64,000 nucleotides of DNA from an uncultured virus (IMG/VR IMGVR_UViG_3300037067_016734). Taxonomy: Duplodnaviria; Heunggongvirae; Uroviricota; Caudoviricetes. Position 1 is the first letter of the stretch, and every line of letters begins with the position of its first letter. Both the position numbers and the translations under genes were made by a program. Below, in pieces: positions 17,130 to 57,327 of this stretch. Below the pieces are notes generated by a model, which saw nothing but the letters and a program-made list of their open reading frames with translations, was not told the origin of the DNA and did not search any database. Location: the IMG/VR virus record IMGVR_UViG_3300037067_016734; one strand, given 5' to 3'.

Positions 17130-17201
17130 CTACGGGTGAAGGGTTCGAACCCTCATTTTCGCAGTCAGAGTGCGCTTTCCTACCGATTAGAAGAACCCGC
17201 A
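17130..17201 (-). tRNA. tRNA-Gln(CTG), CCA not encoded
   Basis: Acceptor TGCGGGT/ACCCGTA with U1-A72 and G73; anticodon loop CT-CTG-AC; T-arm GAGGG-TTCGAAC-CCTTC. Confidence 0.92.
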
Positions 17202-18059: not shown

Positions 18060-18662
18060 TTAACACCTTTCCCATCCACAAGCGGCACAATGTTTGCATC
18101 CATTCTCTGAAATCAAGGAATCTGATTTACAAATAGGACAGACTGAAACTGTTACATTTTTGATATACATAGATAGAATCTTCATAATATGAAATGTAAG
18201 ATGACTTACATTATGATCCACATTTTCTAATTCATCTACTATCTTTTCAACCGGAATCCCATGTCTAAGTGCCAAAGAAATAGTTCTACATAGTTTTGCT
18301 GAATTTGTTTGATGTTTTGATTTAAATCGTTGAGCTTCTAAAAAAATAGAGTCTACGTGTTGTGATACCAAACCCTCTATCTTTTCTAATGCATTTTTGA
18401 TGGTTGCAGAACTATCTCTAGCATTAGTATTCACAAACAATTCATACGGTTTTCCGTCTTTTTCTGTAACCGTAAAATACCACTTCTTTCCATCCGCTCT
18501 TCGTACATATGTATTACCAGAAAGTACTAACGGTCTTTTTTCTACTACTCGCGGCATCTTTAGAAGCCTTTCTGATACTTCTAAGATCTTAATTTCTTCC
18601 TCGTCTCCAACTAAAACGACGCTATCCGATATTACATCATCCGATGTTATAGGGTGAACCAT
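18060..18662 (-). CDS. nrdJb: Class II RNR C-terminal subunit (NrdJb/TSCPD-like, Zn ribbon)
   Basis: PYELFVN, RTISLALRHGIP, CPIC..GCKHCAACGWERC. Confidence 0.85.
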   Translation of the reverse strand: MVHPITSDDVISDSVVLVGDEEEIKILEVSERLLKMPRVVEKRPLVLSGNTYVRRADGKKWYFTVTEKDGKPYELFVNTNARDSSATIKNALEKIEGLVSQHVDSIFLEAQRFKSKHQTNSAKLCRTISLALRHGIPVEKIVDELENVDHNVSHLTFHIMKILSMYIKNVTVSVCPICKSDSLISENGCKHCAACGWERC

Positions 18663-21636
18663 TTCTTTCTATGTACTCCTGACTAAAGTTGAACTGAAAT
18701 TCTTTGTCTAGATCTTTTGGAGTTTTTCTAAACAGGAATATTCCTATTCTATTTGATTCCTGTTCGACATAGACAGTACACCCTTTTAGATTATGTCTCC
18801 ATGCTTCAACATAAAGTTCCTCAATATCAGAAATAGAGGTTGTCTCTCCGGAAAGATTATAGGTAACAGAAATAGAGGCATCAATCCATTCTTGAATTGC
18901 CCCCATTAATTCAATTTTCTTTCTCCAATCAATATTGTGGGCTGTTTTGACTGTTGAGGGATCTACGATGGAATCTACAAGCTCTATCTTTTCGATATCA
19001 GAAGATAGAGTCTCAGTATCGACTCCTGTTTTTTCTAAAACAATATCTCTAATAGCAGGATGAACAACCAACTGCCACATCCATTCATAAGGGTAGTTCT
19101 CGGGGACAACTCTTGTTCTTCTATAATACCACGTGTCTACAATCGGTTCTACGCCACTAGAGGACTGTAGAATCATTGATCCACTTCCAACCGGAGGAAG
19201 AGTGGTGCAACAGACGTTTCTCATTTGAAAATGAAAATCAGGCTTGTCTTTTAAATAACCACTATTATAAACATCTTTGCAAAAAGCCGGATATACTCCT
19301 TTTCTTTGAGATAAAAAGTGACTTTTCCAATATGCTCCCTCCGCCATTTTTTGTGTAATTTTTTCGGCAATTTCTCTTGCTTCGTCGCTATCATAATCCA
19401 CGTTCATTTTTAAAAAGAAATCAGCTAATCCTGTATAACCAACACCTACTCTTCTGAGTTGTTCTAGATCATGCTTTTGAACTGGTGTTGGACAACGATC
19501 ATCTCTTAATTGACATGTTACAATGTTATCGAGAAACCAAAGAACCTCCTTGGCTCTCTCTGAGACCTCACCGTAAGCTTTATCTAAATTATTTGAAAGA
19601 TTTGATAAATTGATATTAGCTAAAACACAAGAAGAACCATTAGATAGAACTTCTTCGCTACAATTGTGAACCCTACATACACCACCACAAATATAAGAAT
19701 TTGTTTCTTCTTCTGTTATACAATATACATCTTCTTTTCCGGCATACTCTACAGATACAATACGAAGTTTCTTATATCTATCTTGATAAATATTGTTTTC
19801 AGTCCATTTCTCCATTCTCTCTTGTTTAAATTTCACTAATGGTGTTATTATCTTCTTTGCATTACTATCGGAAGTTCTTACCTTCCAAACAGTTTGTCTT
19901 ATGCTTTTTTGACCATTGTTAATGTTACACCAATTTGGATTATTATGCTTACATAGTGTACCATATATTCCAAATTCGTGAAACATACGTAGTACATTTT
20001 CTAGCATTTTTCTATTGTAATTATATATTTCCAAAGACTTTAATTTGCTTTTACTTTCTTGATCTCTGACGGTTCCATCGCTCGAAACTAATCCCTGAAG
20101 AAATCCAATTTTAAATGATTTAGACCATTGATTAGGATCTATGTTCTTATTTTTAGAAACACCCCAGGATAATAATTTTTCACATGCCTCTTTCGAAGTA
20201 ATTCTTATTACAGTACAGGTATTTGGTTTTTGATGATGACTCTTGACTGAAATATTTGGATGCAAATGTTTTCTAATTAAATCAGATAATGTATCCAGAT
20301 AATCACTTTCATTATTTCCTATTGCAAAAGAGATAGTGCCATAATGATAAAACTTTTTTGTTTTTAATTCTTTTTTATAAACATAACTTCCATCTCCAAT
20401 AAACCAACCAGCGATAATGCCTCTTTCATATTCATTTTGATCTTCTATATTGCAATTGTGTACAGGTTTACAATACCAATCCTCTAATATATCTGTATTA
20501 TCGATATCCAAAAGTTCTTTTTGTTTATTATTTTTTAGGAAAAATATATGATTACCTGTAAATTTTTGGGTTAATCCATTGGAGAATGTAACTTCATATA
20601 CATCTGCCATTTTTTTTGTCAAAAACGGCCCCTTAACAATAGAGGGCTTATTTTTACCGTTAATTACGGTAAAAATATTATCTTCTGATACATTATTAAA
20701 TAAATATTCTATAGTTTGGTATCCATCCGGAGTTAAAATATGTGAATCTAATGTCTCGCAAGCATTAACCCCTATAACTGGATATCCAACCTGATCACTA
20801 TTAGACTGTTCTTGAGAATGACTCCAATAGAGAAGCCCTGGTTCACTATAATAATAAGCGTTTTTAGCGATTTTTTTCATCAAAGTTCTTGCTTTGATTG
20901 TTTTGGTAACAATAGGATTTTCAGGAGGCCATCTTAGTTCCCAATCTTCATCGTTTTCATATACCTGCATGAATTCATTAGAAACTTTAATAGAAATATT
21001 TGCATATTGAATTCGATTGAGGTCACTTTTGACTGTAATAAACTCTTCAATATCTGGGTGTCGATCATTAATACTGATCAAACCTGCCCCTCGACGCCCT
21101 TCTTGAGCAATTGTCCCCGTTGTCCAGCTAAAGAGGTCCATCCATGAAACCGCGCCGGTACTGGTTACAGCGGCATTGTGGGTTTTTGCTCCTCTCGGTC
21201 TCAAAGGATCAATGGATATTCCAACTCCCTCTCCTCTACTTTGAACTTTAGCCATCAAGAAAGCTGTTTCATATATTGCTTCTATAGAGTCAGGATCAAT
21301 CTCTTTTCCGTTTCTATCTATACCTAAAATAAAACTAGTACAGTTAATTAAAGAGATCTTTCCTTCCCTACCTGCACCATAGAAAATTCTCCCACCGGGA
21401 AGGAATTCTCTATTATACATCATCCAGAACCAATCTTCTGTTTTCTTGACTCTATCTTCTTCTTCAAGTTCGGCACTAGCAGCATAAGAAGCAACTCTAT
21501 AGAAGGCTTCTGCGGGAGTCTCTTTTGTCCCATCAGGCTTAACCATAGCATATTTTGAATTAAATATATATGCTATGTAAAGATCACCCTTAAAGTAATC
21601 AATAGTTGAAGTTGTTGGAATATCCATTGTTACCAT
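18637..21636 (-). CDS. nrdJa: Class II (B12-dependent) ribonucleotide reductase catalytic subunit with intein
   Basis: FLPGGRI, NC, QEGRRGA, spliced NACSE, RRVGVG, SSGVEP, ISVTYN. Confidence 0.92.
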   Translation of the reverse strand: MVTMDIPTTSTIDYFKGDLYIAYIFNSKYAMVKPDGTKETPAEAFYRVASYAASAELEEEDRVKKTEDWFWMMYNREFLPGGRIFYGAGREGKISLINCTSFILGIDRNGKEIDPDSIEAIYETAFLMAKVQSRGEGVGISIDPLRPRGAKTHNAAVTSTGAVSWMDLFSWTTGTIAQEGRRGAGLISINDRHPDIEEFITVKSDLNRIQYANISIKVSNEFMQVYENDEDWELRWPPENPIVTKTIKARTLMKKIAKNAYYYSEPGLLYWSHSQEQSNSDQVGYPVIGVNACETLDSHILTPDGYQTIEYLFNNVSEDNIFTVINGKNKPSIVKGPFLTKKMADVYEVTFSNGLTQKFTGNHIFFLKNNKQKELLDIDNTDILEDWYCKPVHNCNIEDQNEYERGIIAGWFIGDGSYVYKKELKTKKFYHYGTISFAIGNNESDYLDTLSDLIRKHLHPNISVKSHHQKPNTCTVIRITSKEACEKLLSWGVSKNKNIDPNQWSKSFKIGFLQGLVSSDGTVRDQESKSKLKSLEIYNYNRKMLENVLRMFHEFGIYGTLCKHNNPNWCNINNGQKSIRQTVWKVRTSDSNAKKIITPLVKFKQERMEKWTENNIYQDRYKKLRIVSVEYAGKEDVYCITEEETNSYICGGVCRVHNCSEEVLSNGSSCVLANINLSNLSNNLDKAYGEVSERAKEVLWFLDNIVTCQLRDDRCPTPVQKHDLEQLRRVGVGYTGLADFFLKMNVDYDSDEAREIAEKITQKMAEGAYWKSHFLSQRKGVYPAFCKDVYNSGYLKDKPDFHFQMRNVCCTTLPPVGSGSMILQSSSGVEPIVDTWYYRRTRVVPENYPYEWMWQLVVHPAIRDIVLEKTGVDTETLSSDIEKIELVDSIVDPSTVKTAHNIDWRKKIELMGAIQEWIDASISVTYNLSGETTSISDIEELYVEAWRHNLKGCTVYVEQESNRIGIFLFRKTPKDLDKEFQFNFSQEYIERNGSPYNIG
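19663..20760 (-). mobile_element. Intein with LAGLIDADG homing endonuclease (366 aa)
   Basis: Starts CETLDSHILT, ends VHN followed by Cys; blocks AGWFIGDGS and LQGLVSSDGT. Confidence 0.93.
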
Positions 21637-26714: not shown

Positions 26715-28277
26715 CTATCTTGAAGGTAACTTATCAAGCTTCCTAAATACCCCTTCAGGACTGATAGTATAGATCTCTTCAATGCATTGTTCTACCGGCT
26801 TAAACCATTCGCCAGAACTTTCTCCTCTATCTGCATCCATAAATACGATAACAAACTTCGTATTCTCTACATTTAATTCCTTCAGGTGATCTCCTCCAAT
26901 ATACCCATCAGTAAAGATCATTGCATTATCAATTTTATTTTCTATCATATGTTCAATGAAACAGTCGCTTGTTCCGTAGCTTGTTTTAAAGCGACGTTTC
27001 TCTACATCTTCTTCACTACAAGGATGAACGAAGGTTGAAAAGGCATAAATGGCGTCGAAGTGAGCCAAATTATAATAAATTGTAGAGAAGAATATGTGAT
27101 GATAAGCGTCAGTAGAACCAGAAACATCTATATAAGCTACCGCATGAACAGCTTCGTCCTTCTTGGGAACACGATAGAAGACTTGATGAATACCCATAGC
27201 CTTATATGCGATCATGCGTCTATCCCGCATATGAGGAAAAACTTTGCGTCGTTTCTGGTTGTGTTGGATCTTCATAAATGCATGATCTATGAAGTGCTTA
27301 AATTCCGCTGGTGTAGGAATCAAGAGTACATCTTCTTCAAGATCATGCTGCTTAGAGGTCAGATAGTCCTGCATTACCTTTTCGAATTGCTGACGGGCAT
27401 TAGGATTGGCTTCATGTCCTCCGGGATTGGACTTATCAGACATATCCTTAATAATCCCTTCCGCAGCTTCCTCGAAGGCTTCATTTAAGTCTTCTGGATT
27501 GCCATCAAATTCAGGTAAGTCTTCTGGATTGCCATCAAATTCAGCCTCTAATTCACCACCATTAGAAGGTCCACTAGCTCCATGTCCGCCTATAAGGATA
27601 GTTGTTTGTCCGCTTTCTCCTCCGTCTTCATCAAATAGAGATTTTAAATCATAAAATGTTGCACTCTCTTTACTGTAAAGATTGTCATAAACCTCTTGAT
27701 CAAACGGATCTTCGAAAGAACTACCCGGTCTAAGTAAATTATCAGGTTTCTTTGTGGCATCGTACAATTTTTCAAAGAAAGATGTTATTCTTTGATCGAA
27801 ATTAAACTTACGAGTAATTGTACTGTTAATAAGGGCATCGAAGATTATGTTTTTTACTAATTGATTTGTTTCACGTGGGTTGTGGTTCTTATCTAATGCA
27901 TCCTTCTTAAGTTCTTCCATGTGACCTAAAGCATGATGCATGATTTCGTGCATCATTATTACGGCAAGCTCATAGCAGTTAATTTGTTTTTCAAGAAGGA
28001 ATCTCTCAAAAATATAAATATCCTTCTTTAGATCGATAAACGCTGTACCGCCTAATTCATTACCTTTCTCATCTTTGTGTCCATAAGGTAGTTGTACCTG
28101 CTTTTCGAGATCGGAATCTTCTTCGATAAGAATAGTTTTTGCTGTATTAATAAAGTTATAAAATGCAAACTTATACTTTCTCAATACATCAAGAAAATAT
28201 TCGTAAAACTGATCCCAATTTCCTCTCTCATAAGGAAGAGCGGGATTAAATTTTCCTTTGTATTCAAACAGGCTCAT
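26715..28277 (-). CDS. HExxH metallopeptidase-like domain plus vWA domain protein
   Basis: HEIMHH; MIDAS DVSGS; FTDG. Confidence 0.85.
   Translation of the reverse strand: MSLFEYKGKFNPALPYERGNWDQFYEYFLDVLRKYKFAFYNFINTAKTILIEEDSDLEKQVQLPYGHKDEKGNELGGTAFIDLKKDIYIFERFLLEKQINCYELAVIMMHEIMHHALGHMEELKKDALDKNHNPRETNQLVKNIIFDALINSTITRKFNFDQRITSFFEKLYDATKKPDNLLRPGSSFEDPFDQEVYDNLYSKESATFYDLKSLFDEDGGESGQTTILIGGHGASGPSNGGELEAEFDGNPEDLPEFDGNPEDLNEAFEEAAEGIIKDMSDKSNPGGHEANPNARQQFEKVMQDYLTSKQHDLEEDVLLIPTPAEFKHFIDHAFMKIQHNQKRRKVFPHMRDRRMIAYKAMGIHQVFYRVPKKDEAVHAVAYIDVSGSTDAYHHIFFSTIYYNLAHFDAIYAFSTFVHPCSEEDVEKRRFKTSYGTSDCFIEHMIENKIDNAMIFTDGYIGGDHLKELNVENTKFVIVFMDADRGESSGEWFKPVEQCIEEIYTISPEGVFRKLDKLPSR
27486..27544. 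repeat. 30-bp tandem duplication encoding EFDGNPEDL twice
   Basis: taagtcttctggattgccatcaaattcag present twice with period 30. Confidence 0.9.
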
Positions 28278-43391: not shown

Positions 43392-43683
43392 AGCACTCTT
43401 AAGAGATAATTTTCAATGTAATTTTTGTGGAAAAGAAAGCGGTATTGTTCATCACGTTCAATATCGAAGTCACTTTGGAACCACCCTAGCGGCAGAACAA
43501 CAAGCTCTATCTAATTTAATAACGGTTTGTGAACATTGTCATTTACTACTCCATCAGAGTGAATTAATGATTATATACTTAAAAGATAATCCAGAACAAC
43601 CCTTTGTTGTTACAGAGAAGAAATTTAACAAAATCAAAGATAGAGTGAGTTTTTTTGTTAAGAGTGGGGAAAGATTGCAATGA
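43375..43683 (+). CDS. HNH endonuclease
   Basis: RDNFQCNFCG, VHH, NLITVCEHCH. Confidence 0.88.
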   Translation: MMSTYEALLRDNFQCNFCGKESGIVHHVQYRSHFGTTLAAEQQALSNLITVCEHCHLLLHQSELMIIYLKDNPEQPFVVTEKKFNKIKDRVSFFVKSGERLQ

Positions 43684-43694
43684 TAAACCTTAAT

Positions 43695-44825
43695 TTTCTA
43701 AAAAGGGTACAATGTTTTTGTGAAAACAATTCGTTCCACAACTTGTTCTCTAAAATTTGCTTCTCAGGAAAAGCGGGATTTGGTGCGGATTGTGATTGCG
43801 GAATATAGCCGATTGGTGAATTTGTTTATAGATCGATTTTGGAAAGACATTCCTGAAAAACGAATCACAAAAATAGAAATCAATTCTTGGTTGTCCGCTG
43901 GACTGAAACGTGAAGCAGCCAACGAAGCAATCTACATGATTCAAGGAACAAAAAAGTCTGCCAAAACATTAAACAAAGAATGTTCAAAACCAAAACACTC
44001 CGGAAGATCGATGATTATACATGACATGAAAGCATTTGCACTGCTACAGTTCCCAGAAAACACAAATCATTTTGATTATTGGTTGCATCTAACAAGTATT
44101 GGAGATGGATTGATTTTTGATCTTCCAATCAAATCTCACAAACATTTCAAAAACCTACAAAAACGTGGACGCATGAATCAAGCTTGCCTTCTTTCTCCTG
44201 ATAAAGTTCAATTTTCTTTCGAGATTGAAACCGGAGAAAAGAGAAAAGAAGGAAAGGCCATTGGGATCGATCTAGGAATCAACCATTTCCTTGCAACTTC
44301 AGAGGGAAACCTGTTAGGAGACATCAAACCAATCATTGAAAAAATGCTCCACAAAAGACCGGGTTCAAAAGCACGAAAAGGACAAGCAATCCATCTTCGC
44401 AATGAAATGAACCGGACAATCAAATCGCTTCCGAGTGAAGCCAAAACAATGTATGTTGAACGTCTGAAGGGAATCTCTTCAGGCACAAGACAGAGACGAG
44501 TTCCCAAACAAGCTCGTTGTTTGATCGGCAGTTGGAATCAAGGCTATGCTTTGTTGAGGATTCAACGTTTCTGCGAAGACAACCGTGTTGCCTTTAGAAG
44601 CGTTAGTCCTTATCAAACAAGCATCACCTGTTCCGCGTGTGGAAAAGCCGACAAAAAGAACCGTGTCGGAGACGTTTTTCGATGTTCGTGTAGCCACAAC
44701 GAACACGCCGACATCAATGCGGCAAAGAACATCCTTCAGCGCGGGGAAGCGGCAGCAGCGCGGTTCGCCGCAATGGTAGATGCCGTTCCTGTGAAATCAG
44801 GAGAAGGCTCAAAATGAGCCTCTAC
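43695..44825 (+). mobile_element. Non-autonomous IS200/IS605-family (TnpB-only) element, copy 1
   Basis: Similarity to copy 2 runs from TTAAT to TCTAC; removal restores an in-frame ORF; no transposase. Confidence 0.88.
43720..44817 (+). CDS. tnpB: TnpB RNA-guided nuclease
   Basis: RuvC GIDLG / VERL / ADINAA; Zn finger CSACG..CSC. Confidence 0.94.
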   Translation: MKTIRSTTCSLKFASQEKRDLVRIVIAEYSRLVNLFIDRFWKDIPEKRITKIEINSWLSAGLKREAANEAIYMIQGTKKSAKTLNKECSKPKHSGRSMIIHDMKAFALLQFPENTNHFDYWLHLTSIGDGLIFDLPIKSHKHFKNLQKRGRMNQACLLSPDKVQFSFEIETGEKRKEGKAIGIDLGINHFLATSEGNLLGDIKPIIEKMLHKRPGSKARKGQAIHLRNEMNRTIKSLPSEAKTMYVERLKGISSGTRQRRVPKQARCLIGSWNQGYALLRIQRFCEDNRVAFRSVSPYQTSITCSACGKADKKNRVGDVFRCSCSHNEHADINAAKNILQRGEAAAARFAAMVDAVPVKSGEGSK

Positions 44826-44845
44826 TGGAAAGATGTAGTTGCGAA
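44748..44845 (+). ncRNA. Predicted omegaRNA (reRNA) 3' scaffold plus guide, copy 1 (5' end undetermined)
   Basis: Stems conserved with compensatory changes against copy 2; GTAGA/TCTAC pseudoknot; guide from 44826. Confidence 0.7.
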
Positions 44846-44883
44846 TAATCGTATATTAAAAACCATATTATCGAGGCTTACGT

Positions 44884-45303
44884 ATGAATAGAGAAAGTAG
44901 ATCCTTAAAATTATATCCAAAACGCGTGTTTATGCGGTATTGTACGGATCGAGGATGGAAATTCCATCTTTCGTCTCTTCATGAAACCCATGTTAACTCT
45001 ACTAAGTTAAATTCATTTGAATGTTATTGTCCTTCCTTCATTATAGATAGAGACTTCAATGATTCCAATATTCCCTTAATTTGGGGAGAGATCAAGAGTT
45101 GCAATAAAGAGGGAGACATTAAGGTATCAAAAGAAGAGTTTGATATCCATAAAGCATTCAATGAAGGAAGAGAAGTGTGGTATGTTCTTTTCGATCATCG
45201 AAATCGTCATTTCAAAATGATTGCTTTAACAAAGCTTGCTGATTTTTTCACCGCCGCAGACGAAAGATATTTCTATTTTAACTTTAATGATGTTCCGGAG
45301 TAA
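44884..45303 (+). CDS. PD-(D/E)XK-like nuclease
   Basis: YCPSFII..WGEIKS. Confidence 0.5.
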   Translation: MNRESRSLKLYPKRVFMRYCTDRGWKFHLSSLHETHVNSTKLNSFECYCPSFIIDRDFNDSNIPLIWGEIKSCNKEGDIKVSKEEFDIHKAFNEGREVWYVLFDHRNRHFKMIALTKLADFFTAADERYFYFNFNDVPE

Positions 45304-54650: not shown

Positions 54651-55259
54651 TCAGGGGATGATGATTTGTCTTTGTCCACTTGCCCTCATGCGCTCCATTA
54701 CAAATCTATCTACAAATTGTTTTCCTGTGATATCTAAAATATCACGATTAGATCCTCTTACTGCTAACCAAGGAATATGAATTAGACTTGCAGGATAAGG
54801 TAGACTTAAGAGATCGCGTCTAACTTCTGGAATACAGAAAACGGCAGGGTTCTCTAAAGATCCCAATGAGTGATCTTTCTTTAATAGATTAGCGAAAAAT
54901 CCAAAAATTAACATATTACTACCGGCTCTAAGATCAAATTTTTCGTCTCCTCTATCTCCTAAAGCTCTTTCCATGATTTTTCCATAATCTTCATTAAAAC
55001 TATTACCTTCTGTAGTCATCTTTCTAGCTAATTCATCCATCATTTTTGTAGATAAATCAAGATGCATTCCTTGTAATAGATTCCCTTCAATATAGCTTTT
55101 AGCGATAGTAGGATTACCAACTCGATCTAACATAGCATAACCAAAAGTTAAATCTAGGATTCCCATATCCCAAGCGTCATCATCCAAAATTAAATCAATT
55201 GCACCAACAGCACTGGCACCTTGATATGAACCATCTAATGTACTAACTCTTCCCTTCAT
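54651..55259 (-). CDS. Hypothetical protein
   Basis: 202-aa ORF. Confidence 0.6.
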   Translation of the reverse strand: MKGRVSTLDGSYQGASAVGAIDLILDDDAWDMGILDLTFGYAMLDRVGNPTIAKSYIEGNLLQGMHLDLSTKMMDELARKMTTEGNSFNEDYGKIMERALGDRGDEKFDLRAGSNMLIFGFFANLLKKDHSLGSLENPAVFCIPEVRRDLLSLPYPASLIHIPWLAVRGSNRDILDITGKQFVDRFVMERMRASGQRQIIIP

Positions 55260-55554
55260 CAGCTTCTATCTCCTTGACGATTTCATCTAGAGGAGCAAAA
55301 CCTTGGAATTGTTTCTTAAGGAAACTAATCCAATTCTTATTGCTATAAGAAAAGCCTTGTCCAAACCCTATAAAATGTCCTGCATCATAAGCTATATAAA
55401 AACTAATATAAAAAATTGATGCTACTATCATACCACCTATAATTGCAAGGGGTGTTTTAGTAACAAAAGTTAATCCATACCACGTTAATATAGCAATGAT
55501 AAGAGGAAAAAGGATAATATAGATTTCTCTAGCTTTTTGTTGGTAGAATCTCAT
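55243..55554 (-). CDS. Two-TM membrane protein whose start (MRFY) comes from the TnpB element
   Basis: First 4 codons lie inside the element right end; original N-terminus MKQKIVTHFN at 56709-56680. Confidence 0.7.
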   Translation of the reverse strand: MRFYQQKAREIYIILFPLIIAILTWYGLTFVTKTPLAIIGGMIVASIFYISFYIAYDAGHFIGFGQGFSYSNKNWISFLKKQFQGFAPLDEIVKEIEADEGKS

Positions 55555-55626
55555 TTTGAGTTTTCTCCTATATGTTTTTTAGGAGCGGCATCTACCATTG
55601 CGATTGAAAATCGCGCTGCTGCCGCT
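55523..55626 (-). ncRNA. Predicted omegaRNA 3' scaffold plus guide, copy 2
   Basis: Covarying stems against copy 1; guide CAACAAAAAGCTAGAGAAAT from 55542. Confidence 0.7.
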
Positions 55627-56679
55627 TCCCCGCGCTGAAGGATGTTCTTTGCCGCATTGATATCGGCGTGTTCTCTGTGGCTACACGAACATCGAAAAAC
55701 ATCTCCGACACGGTTCTTTTTGTCGGCTTTTCCACACGCGGAACAGGTGATGCTTGTTTGATAAGGACTAACGCTTCTAAAAGCAACACGGTTGTCTTCA
55801 CAGAAGCGTTGAATCCTCGACAAAGCATAGCCTTGATTCCAACTGCCGATCAAACAACGAGTCCGTTTTTGAACTCGTCTCTGTTTTGTGCCTGAAGAGA
55901 TTCCCTTCAGACGTTCAACATACAAAGTTTTGGCTTCACTCGGAAGCGATTTGATTGTCCGGTTCATTTCATTGCGGAGATGGATTGCTTGTCCTCTACG
56001 TCCCTTTGAACCCGGTCTTTTGCGAAGCATTTTTTCAATGATTGGTTTGATGTCTCCTAACAATTCTCCTTCCGAAGTTGCAAGGAAATGATTGATTCCA
56101 AGATCAATCCCGATTGCTCTTCCCTCTTCTCTTTTTGTTCCCGTTTCAATCTCGAAAGAGAATTGAACTTTGTCGGGAGAAAGAAGGCAGGCTTGATTCA
56201 TGCGTCCGCGTTTTTGTAGGTTCTTGAAATGTTTATGAGATTTGATGGGGAGATCAAAGATTAAACCATCACCGATGCTTTTAAGATGCAACCAATAATC
56301 AAAATAAGTCGTTTCTTCTGGAAATTGCAATTCCGCGAATTGATTCATATCCCTTAAACGAATCGATTTTCCAGAATGTTTTGGTTTGGAATATTCGCAT
56401 TTTAAGCTTTTAGCGGCATTTTTTGTTGCTTTGATCATGTAGATTGCTTCGTTGGCGGCTTCCCGTTTCAGTCCAGCGGACAACCAAGAATCGATTTTAA
56501 TTTTTGTGATTCGTTTTTCAGGAACGTCTTTCCAAAATCGATCTATAAATAAATTCACCAATCGGCTATATTCCGCAATCACAATTCGCACCAAATCCCG
56601 CTTTTCCTGAGAAGCAAATTTTAGAGAACAAGTTGTGGAACGAATTGTTTTCACAAAAACATTGTACCCGTTTTAGAAA
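55543..56679 (-). mobile_element. Non-autonomous IS200/IS605-family (TnpB-only) element, copy 2
   Basis: Follows TTAAT (56684-56680), ends TCTAC; removal restores an in-frame ORF. Confidence 0.88.
55551..56654 (-). CDS. tnpB: TnpB RNA-guided nuclease
   Basis: Same RuvC and Zn-finger motifs as 43720; close paralog. Confidence 0.94.
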   Translation of the reverse strand: MKTIRSTTCSLKFASQEKRDLVRIVIAEYSRLVNLFIDRFWKDVPEKRITKIKIDSWLSAGLKREAANEAIYMIKATKNAAKSLKCEYSKPKHSGKSIRLRDMNQFAELQFPEETTYFDYWLHLKSIGDGLIFDLPIKSHKHFKNLQKRGRMNQACLLSPDKVQFSFEIETGTKREEGRAIGIDLGINHFLATSEGELLGDIKPIIEKMLRKRPGSKGRRGQAIHLRNEMNRTIKSLPSEAKTLYVERLKGISSGTKQRRVQKRTRCLIGSWNQGYALSRIQRFCEDNRVAFRSVSPYQTSITCSACGKADKKNRVGDVFRCSCSHREHADINAAKNILQRGEAAAARFSIAMVDAAPKKHIGENSK

Positions 56680-57327
56680 ATTAAAATGAGTTACTATTTT
56701 TTGTTTCATTGGCTTGTATAATCCCTGTTTCAAGATAAAACTTAACAATATCTTCTTCTGAAATCTTAAAAATGATATTCAAGATAGAGGTTGCGGTTCC
56801 GAGGAGATATTTTAGATCATCTGTGAGTGGTGTTAAAAACACTTGTTCGTCATCCTTGACGGAAAGAATGGCTTCTTTATAGCCGTACTCATTTATCAAG
56901 GTTTGGATTTTTTCAATGAATTCGTTGAGTTTGTTTGTGTTCTCGATATTTGCTTCGTTTTCTGCCATAATATACTCCAAAATTTGATTAAGAGAGACGA
57001 TCCTCTCTACAATGTTTTACCCATTCGATAAAATTTTTGTAAAGCGAAACCAATATACCGGATAATGTGGTATAGTAAATTGTCGTAAATTTAGCTTAAA
57101 AGGTGCTTATATGGACGAAAAAAAGCCTACCATCAATCAACTTATTTATACCGGACGTATTAACGAAGAAGTTCGGTATATGACTTATTATCCTTGTTAT
57201 GTTCGAGATATTTCTTCAGACAAAACAAGATTAATCATAGAATTTCATTCGTATAATCATACATATTCTTGGGAAGTCCCTGCCAGTTCCGTTCTACGTA
57301 CTATAAACTAATTCGGGAGAATATGAA

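Follow-up and report, generated by a model that had tools for sequence, protein, structure and literature searches.

Two tnpB-only elements of apparent IS607 descent in a large uncultured phage, with a predicted omegaRNA scaffold and a putative translational restart at their right ends

The stretch of DNA analyzed here (the window; 64,000 nucleotides of the IMG/VR record IMGVR_UViG_3300037067_016734) is part of a large uncultured phage. It has a GC content of ~34% and encodes members of the PHROGs families DNA polymerase III alpha, ribonucleotide reductase, DnaB, sigma factor, UvsX, and prohead protease. The phage DNA polymerase is only ~30% identical to those of named phages, and blastn against phages returned no relatives at the DNA level. 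Contigs matching the window were found in three sequencing runs (X1–X3) from three studies, covering groundwater and landfill, with X1 as the probable source run. In the regions 18060–21636 and 26715–28277, the ribonucleotide reductase is split into two ORFs, the large one with an endonuclease-like insert at residues ~240–570, and a 520-aa ORF matches an endonuclease family; the insert and the 520-aa ORF are probably inteins or homing endonucleases. One tRNA gene lies on the minus strand at 17130–17201.

Two tnpB-only elements interrupt small operon ORFs of this genome, each within the first codons. Copy 1 (1131 bp) occupies positions 43695–44825 of the plus strand and copy 2 (1137 bp) positions 56679–55543 of the minus strand. 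Both adjoin TTAAT, a candidate target motif or TAM, on the left (43690–43694, plus strand, and 56680–56684, minus strand) and finish in TCTAC. On the left side, the sequence common to both copies begins at TTAA, 30 nt 5′ of a GTG start codon, and tnpB then encodes 365 aa in copy 1 (43720–44817, plus strand) and 367 aa in copy 2 (55551–56654, minus strand), the two products being 88% identical. A contig of run X2 spans the left junction of copy 1 without differences. A contig of run X1, with a depth of 4.7, carries a third tnpB variant with 15 listed differences from copy 2 (window positions 55746–55863).

The interrupted ORFs can be followed on both sides of each element. At the copy 1 site, an ATG at 43680 overlaps the stop codon of an HNH gene (ATGA) and opens five codons (43680–43694, plus strand) that close on TTAAT; beyond TCTAC, the frame continues until a stop codon that overlaps the ATG of the next gene. 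At the copy 2 site, ten codons starting from an ATG at 56709 (56680–56709, minus strand) close on TTAAT, and past the element the frame continues as an ORF of 99 codons that encodes two hydrophobic stretches.

Within the 25-nt left end lies GGGTAC/TACAAT (43705–43713, plus strand), a possible relic of an ancestral IS607-type junction and/or a ribosome-binding site or −10-like motif for tnpB; GTAC is expected by chance in ~5% of such stretches. TACAAT is located 6 nt 5′ of the tnpB GTG, and a three-codon ORF overlaps this start (GTGA; 43708–43722). In a relative of these elements (L283), a perfect −35/−10 pair is found 6 nt 5′ of the tnpB ATG. Leaderless tnpB transcripts are possible, an arrangement that is rare among the genes of this phage (2/71), and the left end of copy 1 gave no sigma-70 promoter call. 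We also considered that the left end is a repeated phage promoter and rejected this, as its matches are confined to the two copies.

The tnpB product is predicted from its sequence to be an RNA-guided nuclease. The RuvC residues D184/E247/D331 and the cysteines of a C4 zinc finger (C304/307/322/324) are present in both copies and in 60/60 aligned proteins, which bears out an earlier claim, made in a preliminary description of this DNA, that the catalytic triad is intact. PF07282 is matched at 51–52 bits (cut-off 26.3); the NCBIfam model guided_TnpB scores 64–68 bits, under its cut-off of 100, and the NCBIfam TnpB models all remain below their cut-offs. The best Foldseek matches of the predicted structure (pLDDT 88.5) are AsCas12f and the TnpBs of ISFba1 and ISDra2, with none of the solved structures compared exceeding ~18% identity. 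Between the two copies, codon differences over residues 131–343 are 32 synonymous versus 14 non-synonymous. Residues 71–130 are highly diverged, with 17 synonymous and 20 non-synonymous differences in 60 codons; DNA identity falls to 66% at 43974–44073 (a patch within 43930–44110) and is otherwise 85–97%. The diverged residues adjoin the TAM-reading region, and the copies are mosaic.

The 3′ end of tnpB overlaps a folded segment that is predicted to be the omegaRNA scaffold, with the right end at TCTAC and the guide starting from the next base. In copy 1 (plus strand), the first stem-loop, SL1 (AGCGGCA/TGCCGTT; 44748–44787), encloses an inner hairpin (44760–44771) and the pseudoknot loop strand GTAGA (44776–44780); SL2 follows at 44787–44802, SL3, a subterminal hairpin, at 44805–44821, and the pseudoknot 3′ strand TCTAC, the last bases of the element, at 44821–44825. 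The scaffold core of copy 2 (55543–55626, minus strand) has two 3-nt insertions relative to copy 1, with GTAGA at 55595–55591 and TCTAC at 55547–55543. The predicted guides are 44826–44845 (plus strand), which doubles as the remainder of the ORF interrupted by copy 1, and 55523–55542 (minus strand). All hairpins, the enclosing stem, and the pseudoknot of the preliminary description lie where it had placed them in copy 1 (44748–44825, plus strand) and recur in copy 2 (55626–55543, minus strand); likewise, the alignment of both right ends loses similarity directly 3′ of TCTAC, and the guides begin at the following base, as had been written.

Its fold and right end hold, through a shared register and not through sequence similarity. 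The two copies alone offer thin evidence: the inner hairpin, SL2, and SL3 have a single compensatory double change apiece (three in all), SL3 also has one broken pair, and SL1 has one one-sided change. Real support comes from the relatives described below. The enclosing stem and the pseudoknot are near-identical by descent in both copies, and their support is therefore that of the relatives. Folding z-scores for copies 1 and 2 are −3.38 and −2.11 in short windows and −2.58 and −1.74 in longer ones. The base pairs listed in the preliminary description have probabilities of 0.56–1.0, except for the outermost SL1 pair of copy 1 (0.19), and the minimum-energy fold of copy 1 differs from these pairs in SL1. 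The 7-bp SL1 and the 5-bp SL2 have one T in common, and the closing T of SL3 is also the first base of TCTAC, so the listed pairs cannot all form together. We rejected a pseudoknot lengthened into the guide by one further base (G with T or C), since this is possible in 25/52 relatives, which is the chance level; it would also place a stop in the copy 2 host frame. At Rfam gathering scores, the window gives only a tRNA, and RAGATH-18 is not matched.

A protein search returned 77 proteins at E ≤ 1e-20, one outsider being 70% identical (P0003) and the others at most 45%. An alignment of 32 of these proteins led to 240 loci, 58 of which have a near-full-length match to a member of the clade (22 viral contigs, 4 genomes, and 32 metagenomes, L155 being a duplicate of L156); locus searches with copy 1 alone, or with a three-protein alignment, confirmed nothing in viral contigs, and in two motif scans 0/151 loci encode a TnpB relative. 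After setting aside four loci with no called end and one duplicate, 55 right ends were examined, those of 53 relatives and of both window copies. The right ends of the relatives are sharply defined, mostly as ACGGT or ACTAT; conservation halts exactly after the pseudoknot strand, and composition is random from +1. In 54/55 right ends, five loop nucleotides of a stem pair with the final 5 nt of the element in the same register (the search required G as the fourth loop base and no fewer than 4 pairs). The pairs vary in a compensatory manner: position 1 is A:T in 50, G:C in 3, and T:A in 1; position 2 is C:G in 31, T:A in 21, and T:G in 2; and position 5 is T:A in 50 and A:T in 2, with a G:G mismatch mid-pseudoknot in 29 relatives. 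The window GTAGA/TCTAC occupies this register, with double changes at positions 1 and 5, and the pseudoknot proposed earlier from the two copies is supported by the shared register and the compensatory changes. TnpB RNAs are described as generally having a nexus pseudoknot (PMC10690162, PMC10097598).

SL1 is 100% paired in 35 aligned relatives, with 3/5 pairs changed on both sides, a covariation score reached by 0/500 shuffles, and slid controls dropping to 27–49% paired. The SL2 base is 90.5% paired and covaries, as does one pseudoknot pair. A lower stem (columns 5–9 with 37–41) was dropped, as it reaches just 78% pairing and would compete with the SL2 base, for which the support is better. 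A covariance model built from the relatives, a check that the preliminary description had proposed, contained just SL1 and the tentative lower stem and detected neither window scaffold (best match E 0.86, elsewhere). RNA homology therefore rests on position and register. The scaffold cores of the relatives measure 46–108 nt, counted from SL1 to the element end. Against these, the scaffold of the window copies has been rebuilt, with an additional hairpin inside the SL1 loop, changed pseudoknot pairs, and an added SL3 that has no counterpart in the aligned relatives; the AAA linker is absent.

The company kept by tnpB in these loci speaks to its lineage. An IS607-type serine transposase gene lies upstream of tnpB in 32/58 relatives (one matches by its first 40 residues only; two that were checked are PF00239), and the 49 upstream ORFs scanned (of 79 listed), from 22 of the 26 relatives without tnpA(S), included no Y1 transposase. 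The window has no serine transposase (best tblastn E 0.59), and no other transposase family was found among the 60 window ORFs scanned (PHROGs). In a 35-row tree with a midpoint root, the three window-type proteins group together (100/100) at the end of a long stem branch (1.23); the ACGGT group is their sister (98/95), and they lie within a 100/100 group that includes ACTAT rows; outgroups were placed in a separate quick tree. The left ends of the ACGGT group have GGGT followed, 3–6 nt on, by an inverted copy of the right end in 14/29 cases (0.36 expected from shuffles and 0/23 downstream, for a motif derived from the same data). In the ACTAT group, GTAT occurs shortly upstream in 14/16 cases (6.5 expected), and in one close pair similarity begins exactly at GTAT. 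Wherever the left end of a relative can be called, its end dinucleotides match (GT/GT or AT/AT). Published IS607 elements have a GG core (PMC6188088, PMC13565253); in the clade surrounding the window proteins (relatives L118–L337), the IS607-type elements have a GT or AT core in place of GG and a predicted TAM of GGGT or GTAT.

The window copies depart from this pattern. Their end dinucleotides, AT on the left versus AC on the right, do not match, they adjoin an AT-rich motif, and they have a subterminal hairpin; of the IS607 traits, tnpA within the element, matching end dinucleotides, and a G-rich motif at the present junction are absent, and the position of TnpB within a tnpA(S)-linked clade is present. 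Of the IS200/IS605 traits, insertion 3′ of an AT-rich 4–5-mer, without duplication and with unrelated ends, can be read from the junctions, and a Y1 tnpA was found neither in the element nor in the lineage, as far as upstream ORFs were sampled. As for subterminal hairpins, SL3 on the right ends 4 nt from the element end, and the left folds are weak (~−4.5 kcal/mol) and differ between the copies. The framing of the preliminary description, which had read the locus by analogy with ISDra2, is apt for the junction, which looks IS200/IS605-like, and fails for the protein, which nests among IS607-type TnpBs. By its sequence, the protein descends from IS607-type TnpBs with G-containing targets. An IS607-type lineage with IS200/IS605-like ends leads us to file the elements in neither family, as what look to be solo TnpB elements of IS607 descent with remodeled ends. 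An exchange of TnpB between the two transposase types has been described (PMC10691335).

The relatives carry several further genes. Among the tnpA-bearing ones, 13/32 have one to three unrelated ORFs between tnpA(S) and tnpB (L278, L279, L281, L282, L284, L286, L288, L300, L306, L309, L316, L130, L139); close elements differ in these passengers, whose stop often touches the tnpB ATG, and the position looks like a cargo slot in phage-enriched IS607 elements. In the ACGGT group, a conserved ORF of ~70 codons lies between the left end and tnpA (L278, L288, L316, L287, L311, L309, L282, L300, L286, L306, L123, L139). A ribbon-helix-helix gene (PF01402; L303:425–580) directly precedes a tnpB with an intact triad, and short ORFs like it were seen by eye before tnpB in L280, L314, L136, and L331. 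At L149:665–1891, a second, unrelated tnpB of IS605 type lies upstream of the clade tnpB and divergent from it.

The identity of the TAM can be approached from the interrupted ORFs. If the right end is taken to lie behind TCTAC, both ORFs (26 and 109 codons) are recovered only when the left cut is placed 2, 5, 8, and so on bases into TTAAT; cuts at 4, 6, 19 (GGGT), and 21 (GTAC) fail. Among options of TAM size, the TAM 5′-TTAAT of the preliminary description is favored by these reading frames, but a TTAAC join, in which the target would supply the last base of the right end, gives the same frames and length, with AAC for AAT, and residue 64, a putative TAM-reading residue, points to a G. We give TTAAT an even chance of being the TAM; a G-containing ancestral motif is an unlikely second choice, and TTAAC or some other motif would each be a slightly poorer guess still.

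Position 64 may correspond to Q80 of ISDra2 TnpB, in the ISDra2 register that we assume for this mapping. It is K in 30/31 GGGT-group proteins, Q in 18/18 GTAT-group proteins, and R in the window proteins, which argues for G rather than A at TAM −2. Q80 of ISDra2 is reported to read the A at −2 (PMC10097598). At nearby positions, the window proteins have G at residue 61, where the two groups have R (30/31 and 18/18), mostly N in place of R/K68, E or D in place of V65, and two residues inserted at 102–103; the surface that reads the TAM has therefore changed, and the window sub-lineage seems to have acquired an altered specificity. One residue (K or Q at 64) tracks the predicted TAM −2 base across the clade, and the window sub-lineage seems to lie outside the scheme, making a switch of TAM or transposase directly testable.

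These same data can be read in two other ways. In the first, the nuclease still reads the ancestral GGGT or GTAC, kept at 43705–43710, and the element moved together with 14–16 captured flanking bases; TnpB would therefore no longer cut its own empty sites and would be kept for RNA processing or by drift. The rule of the family, by which the TAM has its last three bases in common with the right end and a G at −4, leads one to expect GTAC where the end is TCTAC, GGGTAC lies in the left end common to both copies (~5% by chance), and residue 64 is basic, as in the GGGT group. Set against this are the altered reading surface (R61 to G, R/K68 mostly to N, V65 to E/D, and the 102–103 insertion), the excess of synonymous over non-synonymous differences in the nuclease part, and the chance that GGGT is merely the ribosome-binding site of tnpB. 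We regard this reading as improbable.

In the second, IS607 geometry persists: a serine transposase acting in trans would exchange strands within a dinucleotide core, the T before the element would be element-derived and the final C of TCTAC target-derived, and the empty site and TAM would read TTAAC, with the guides unchanged. The lineage is indeed IS607-type, and TTAAC preserves both host frames. In ISXfa1, the right-flanking base is target-fixed and part of the scaffold (PMC10711439), and CboTnpA(S) can yield products with unmatched end dinucleotides (PMC10690162). A two-base core mismatch, on the other hand, blocked excision in the same work (PMC10690162), the callable relatives have matching cores (GT/GT, AT/AT), and the window left end is only 25 nt long, without a motif of the AC[N]GTT type of the GGGT group at the junction; we hold this geometry to be rather unlikely. 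Neither guide has a self-target in the window beside any candidate TAM (at least 5 mismatches of 16). The literature search found no paper combining TnpB and TTAAT and, in titles and the starts of abstracts, nothing on point for the TAMs of this clade, one member of which may still belong to the set of 59 orthologues in PMC10278001 or appear in the tables of PMC10691335.

The folded right-end segment is, with good probability, the omegaRNA core of a predicted active, non-autonomous TnpB element present in two copies in a large phage. The tnpB mRNA would read through the right end into the flank, its last 80–90 nt of element sequence folding into three stems and the GTAGA/TCTAC pseudoknot, and the bases past TCTAC would serve as the guide. 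Judging from published TnpB work, the RNP would cut element-free alleles beside the left-end motif, and repair from an occupied phage genome would copy the element in, as homing or retention; RNP cutting of element-free alleles and copying by repair are described for other systems (10.1101/2023.03.14.532601, PMC10690162). In a phage, the DNA that is cut would belong to a co-infecting relative or to an excised copy, and the cutting of empty alleles in co-infecting phages, as the preliminary description had it, is a reasonable inference. The sub-lineage has lost tnpA and rebuilt its scaffold, and it now adjoins TTAAT with unmatched end dinucleotides; for these reasons the element would have moved in trans, by a Y1 transposase (IS200/IS605) or a mismatch-tolerant serine transposase, which new sites would need.

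Empty alleles were looked for, and none turned up. The joined flanks of the relatives match no uninterrupted site, and two flanking proteins find no related phage. The X1–X3 contigs contain no joint across either element, which is not evidence of absence because contigs drop rare variants; a joint in X3 (55417–56671) lies off the element ends and was treated as low-likeness noise. We also weighed whether copy 2 arose by recombination, or by repair of a break made by TnpB, with no transposase at all, leaving its left boundary uninformative for the TAM. The window lacks a serine transposase, no second transposase family appeared among the 60 scanned ORFs, and residues 71–130 are much more diverged than the rest, showing recombination with other alleles; yet the right boundary coincides exactly with the end of the functional scaffold, and in both copies the left boundary recovers the reading frame at one and the same motif, a precision typical of a transposase, and we consider such an origin very unlikely.

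The right end contains a feature that the preliminary description overlooked, an in-frame restart signal. In copy 1, AGGAG (44799–44803, plus strand), supplied by the 3′ strand of SL2, precedes an ATG (44814–44816) in SL3 that overlaps the tnpB TGA; this putative restart signal (44799–44816) opens an ORF of 25 codons (44814–44891) whose stop overlaps the ATG of the next gene at 44884. In copy 2 (minus strand), AGGAG at 55569–55565 and ATG at 55554–55552 open an ORF of 103 aa (55243–55554) with two hydrophobic stretches, four codons of which come from the element and the rest from the interrupted gene. At both right ends, AGGAG-N10-ATG overlaps the tnpB stop and is in frame with a small phage gene interrupted at codon 5 or 10, and the ATG stands 12 nt before the element end. 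Of the gene junctions counted in the window, ATGA is the most frequent. The signal lies within SL2 and SL3, both of which a ribosome finishing TnpB would unfold. A translational rescue of the host gene by this restart is putative, and we place its probability at or somewhat below even; the insertions are probably tolerated because the downstream part of each gene is still translated. Among titles and abstract starts, the literature held nothing on point for a restart mechanism in such elements.

The signal may instead be incidental: AGGA would have been inherited as the 3′ strand of SL2, the ATG would have come about by chance with the stop codon, and the ORFs would be dead or non-genes; to us this is a toss-up. 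The relatives finish in AGGAACGGT, which makes AGGA older than any restart role, and ATGA at the tnpB stop is rare among them (4/53, one of which stays open for >100 nt past the end). In P0003, the closest protein from elsewhere (70%), the tail differs, and the stop probably does not fall on the same ATGA. The location of the signal inside hairpins fits this reading too, as do the small ORFs without homologues: none were detected, the 25-codon ORF being too short to search. Three observations pull the other way. Two independent insertions are both sense, rescue the frame, and lie at most ten codons from a coupled start; both element sites satisfy the strict, stop-coupled form. The 422 other TTAAT sites include 21 with an ATG in frame at most 10 codons away and at least 21 open codons, four of which are also stop-coupled upstream, so that ~1–5% of these sites look alike, under criteria chosen post hoc and with n = 2 copies of one ancestor. 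Both scaffold indels are 3 nt long and keep the stop on the ATG, and the remainder of copy 2 has gene-like GC by codon position, with no other start before codon 38.

The fuller proposal, that a phage TnpB lineage of IS607 descent turned to an AT-rich target and built a stop-coupled ribosome-binding site and start codon into its scaffold to restart the host gene, is tentative, and we would sooner bet against it than for it. Since TTAAT in coding DNA frequently closes on a codon boundary, ribosomes finishing TnpB would, if the proposal is true, restart the interrupted gene. Damage would be repaired without splicing, and the transcript would be either host-gene message or guide RNA, a translational counterpart of the IStron conflict. 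A real restart would also give RNA-guided selfish elements a simple survival route in gene-dense phage operons. As a tool candidate, the element offers a 365-aa nuclease, a scaffold core of ~80 nt, and ready-made guides, distant from characterized orthologues.

Among known systems, ISDra2 (IS200/IS605; PMC10097598, PDB 8h1j) shares with the window elements a RuvC nuclease of the TnpB fold, an RNA that overlaps the 3′ end of the gene, a pseudoknot joining the first stem-loop to the 3′ end, an AT-rich 5-nt left motif, and a subterminal hairpin. It differs in sequence (~14% identity in the structural alignment), in its pseudoknot, which spans −6 to −2, whereas that of the window runs to −1, and in its scaffold of 116 nt versus a core of 78–84 nt; no Y1 tnpA, and no stable left-end hairpin common to both copies, was seen in the window. 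The IS607 TnpBs of CboIStron (PMC10690162), ISXfa1 (PMC10711439), and ISFba1/RAGATH-18 (PMC11061315, PDB 8iaz) resemble the lineage in its link to tnpA(S) and the window in having three stem-loops and a nexus pseudoknot. The last two scaffold bases of the IS607 relatives match the end of the TAM, unlike those of the window copies, and the published IS607 TAMs (TGGG, GGG, AGGAG, or GAGGG) go with a GG core, in contrast to the GT/AT cores of the relatives and the AT-rich junction of the window. IStrons, which combine a group I intron with an IS605 or IS607 TnpB, are similar in that one RNA end serves both the guide scaffold and host-gene expression, two uses that compete; the window elements have no intron, and their proposed rescue is a translational restart, workable only near the start of a gene. 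Finally, the free-standing homing endonucleases of phages (reviewed in PMC13565253) are proposed, like the window elements, to spread by cutting element-free alleles in co-infection, but the window nuclease would be RNA-guided, with its target renewed at each insertion.
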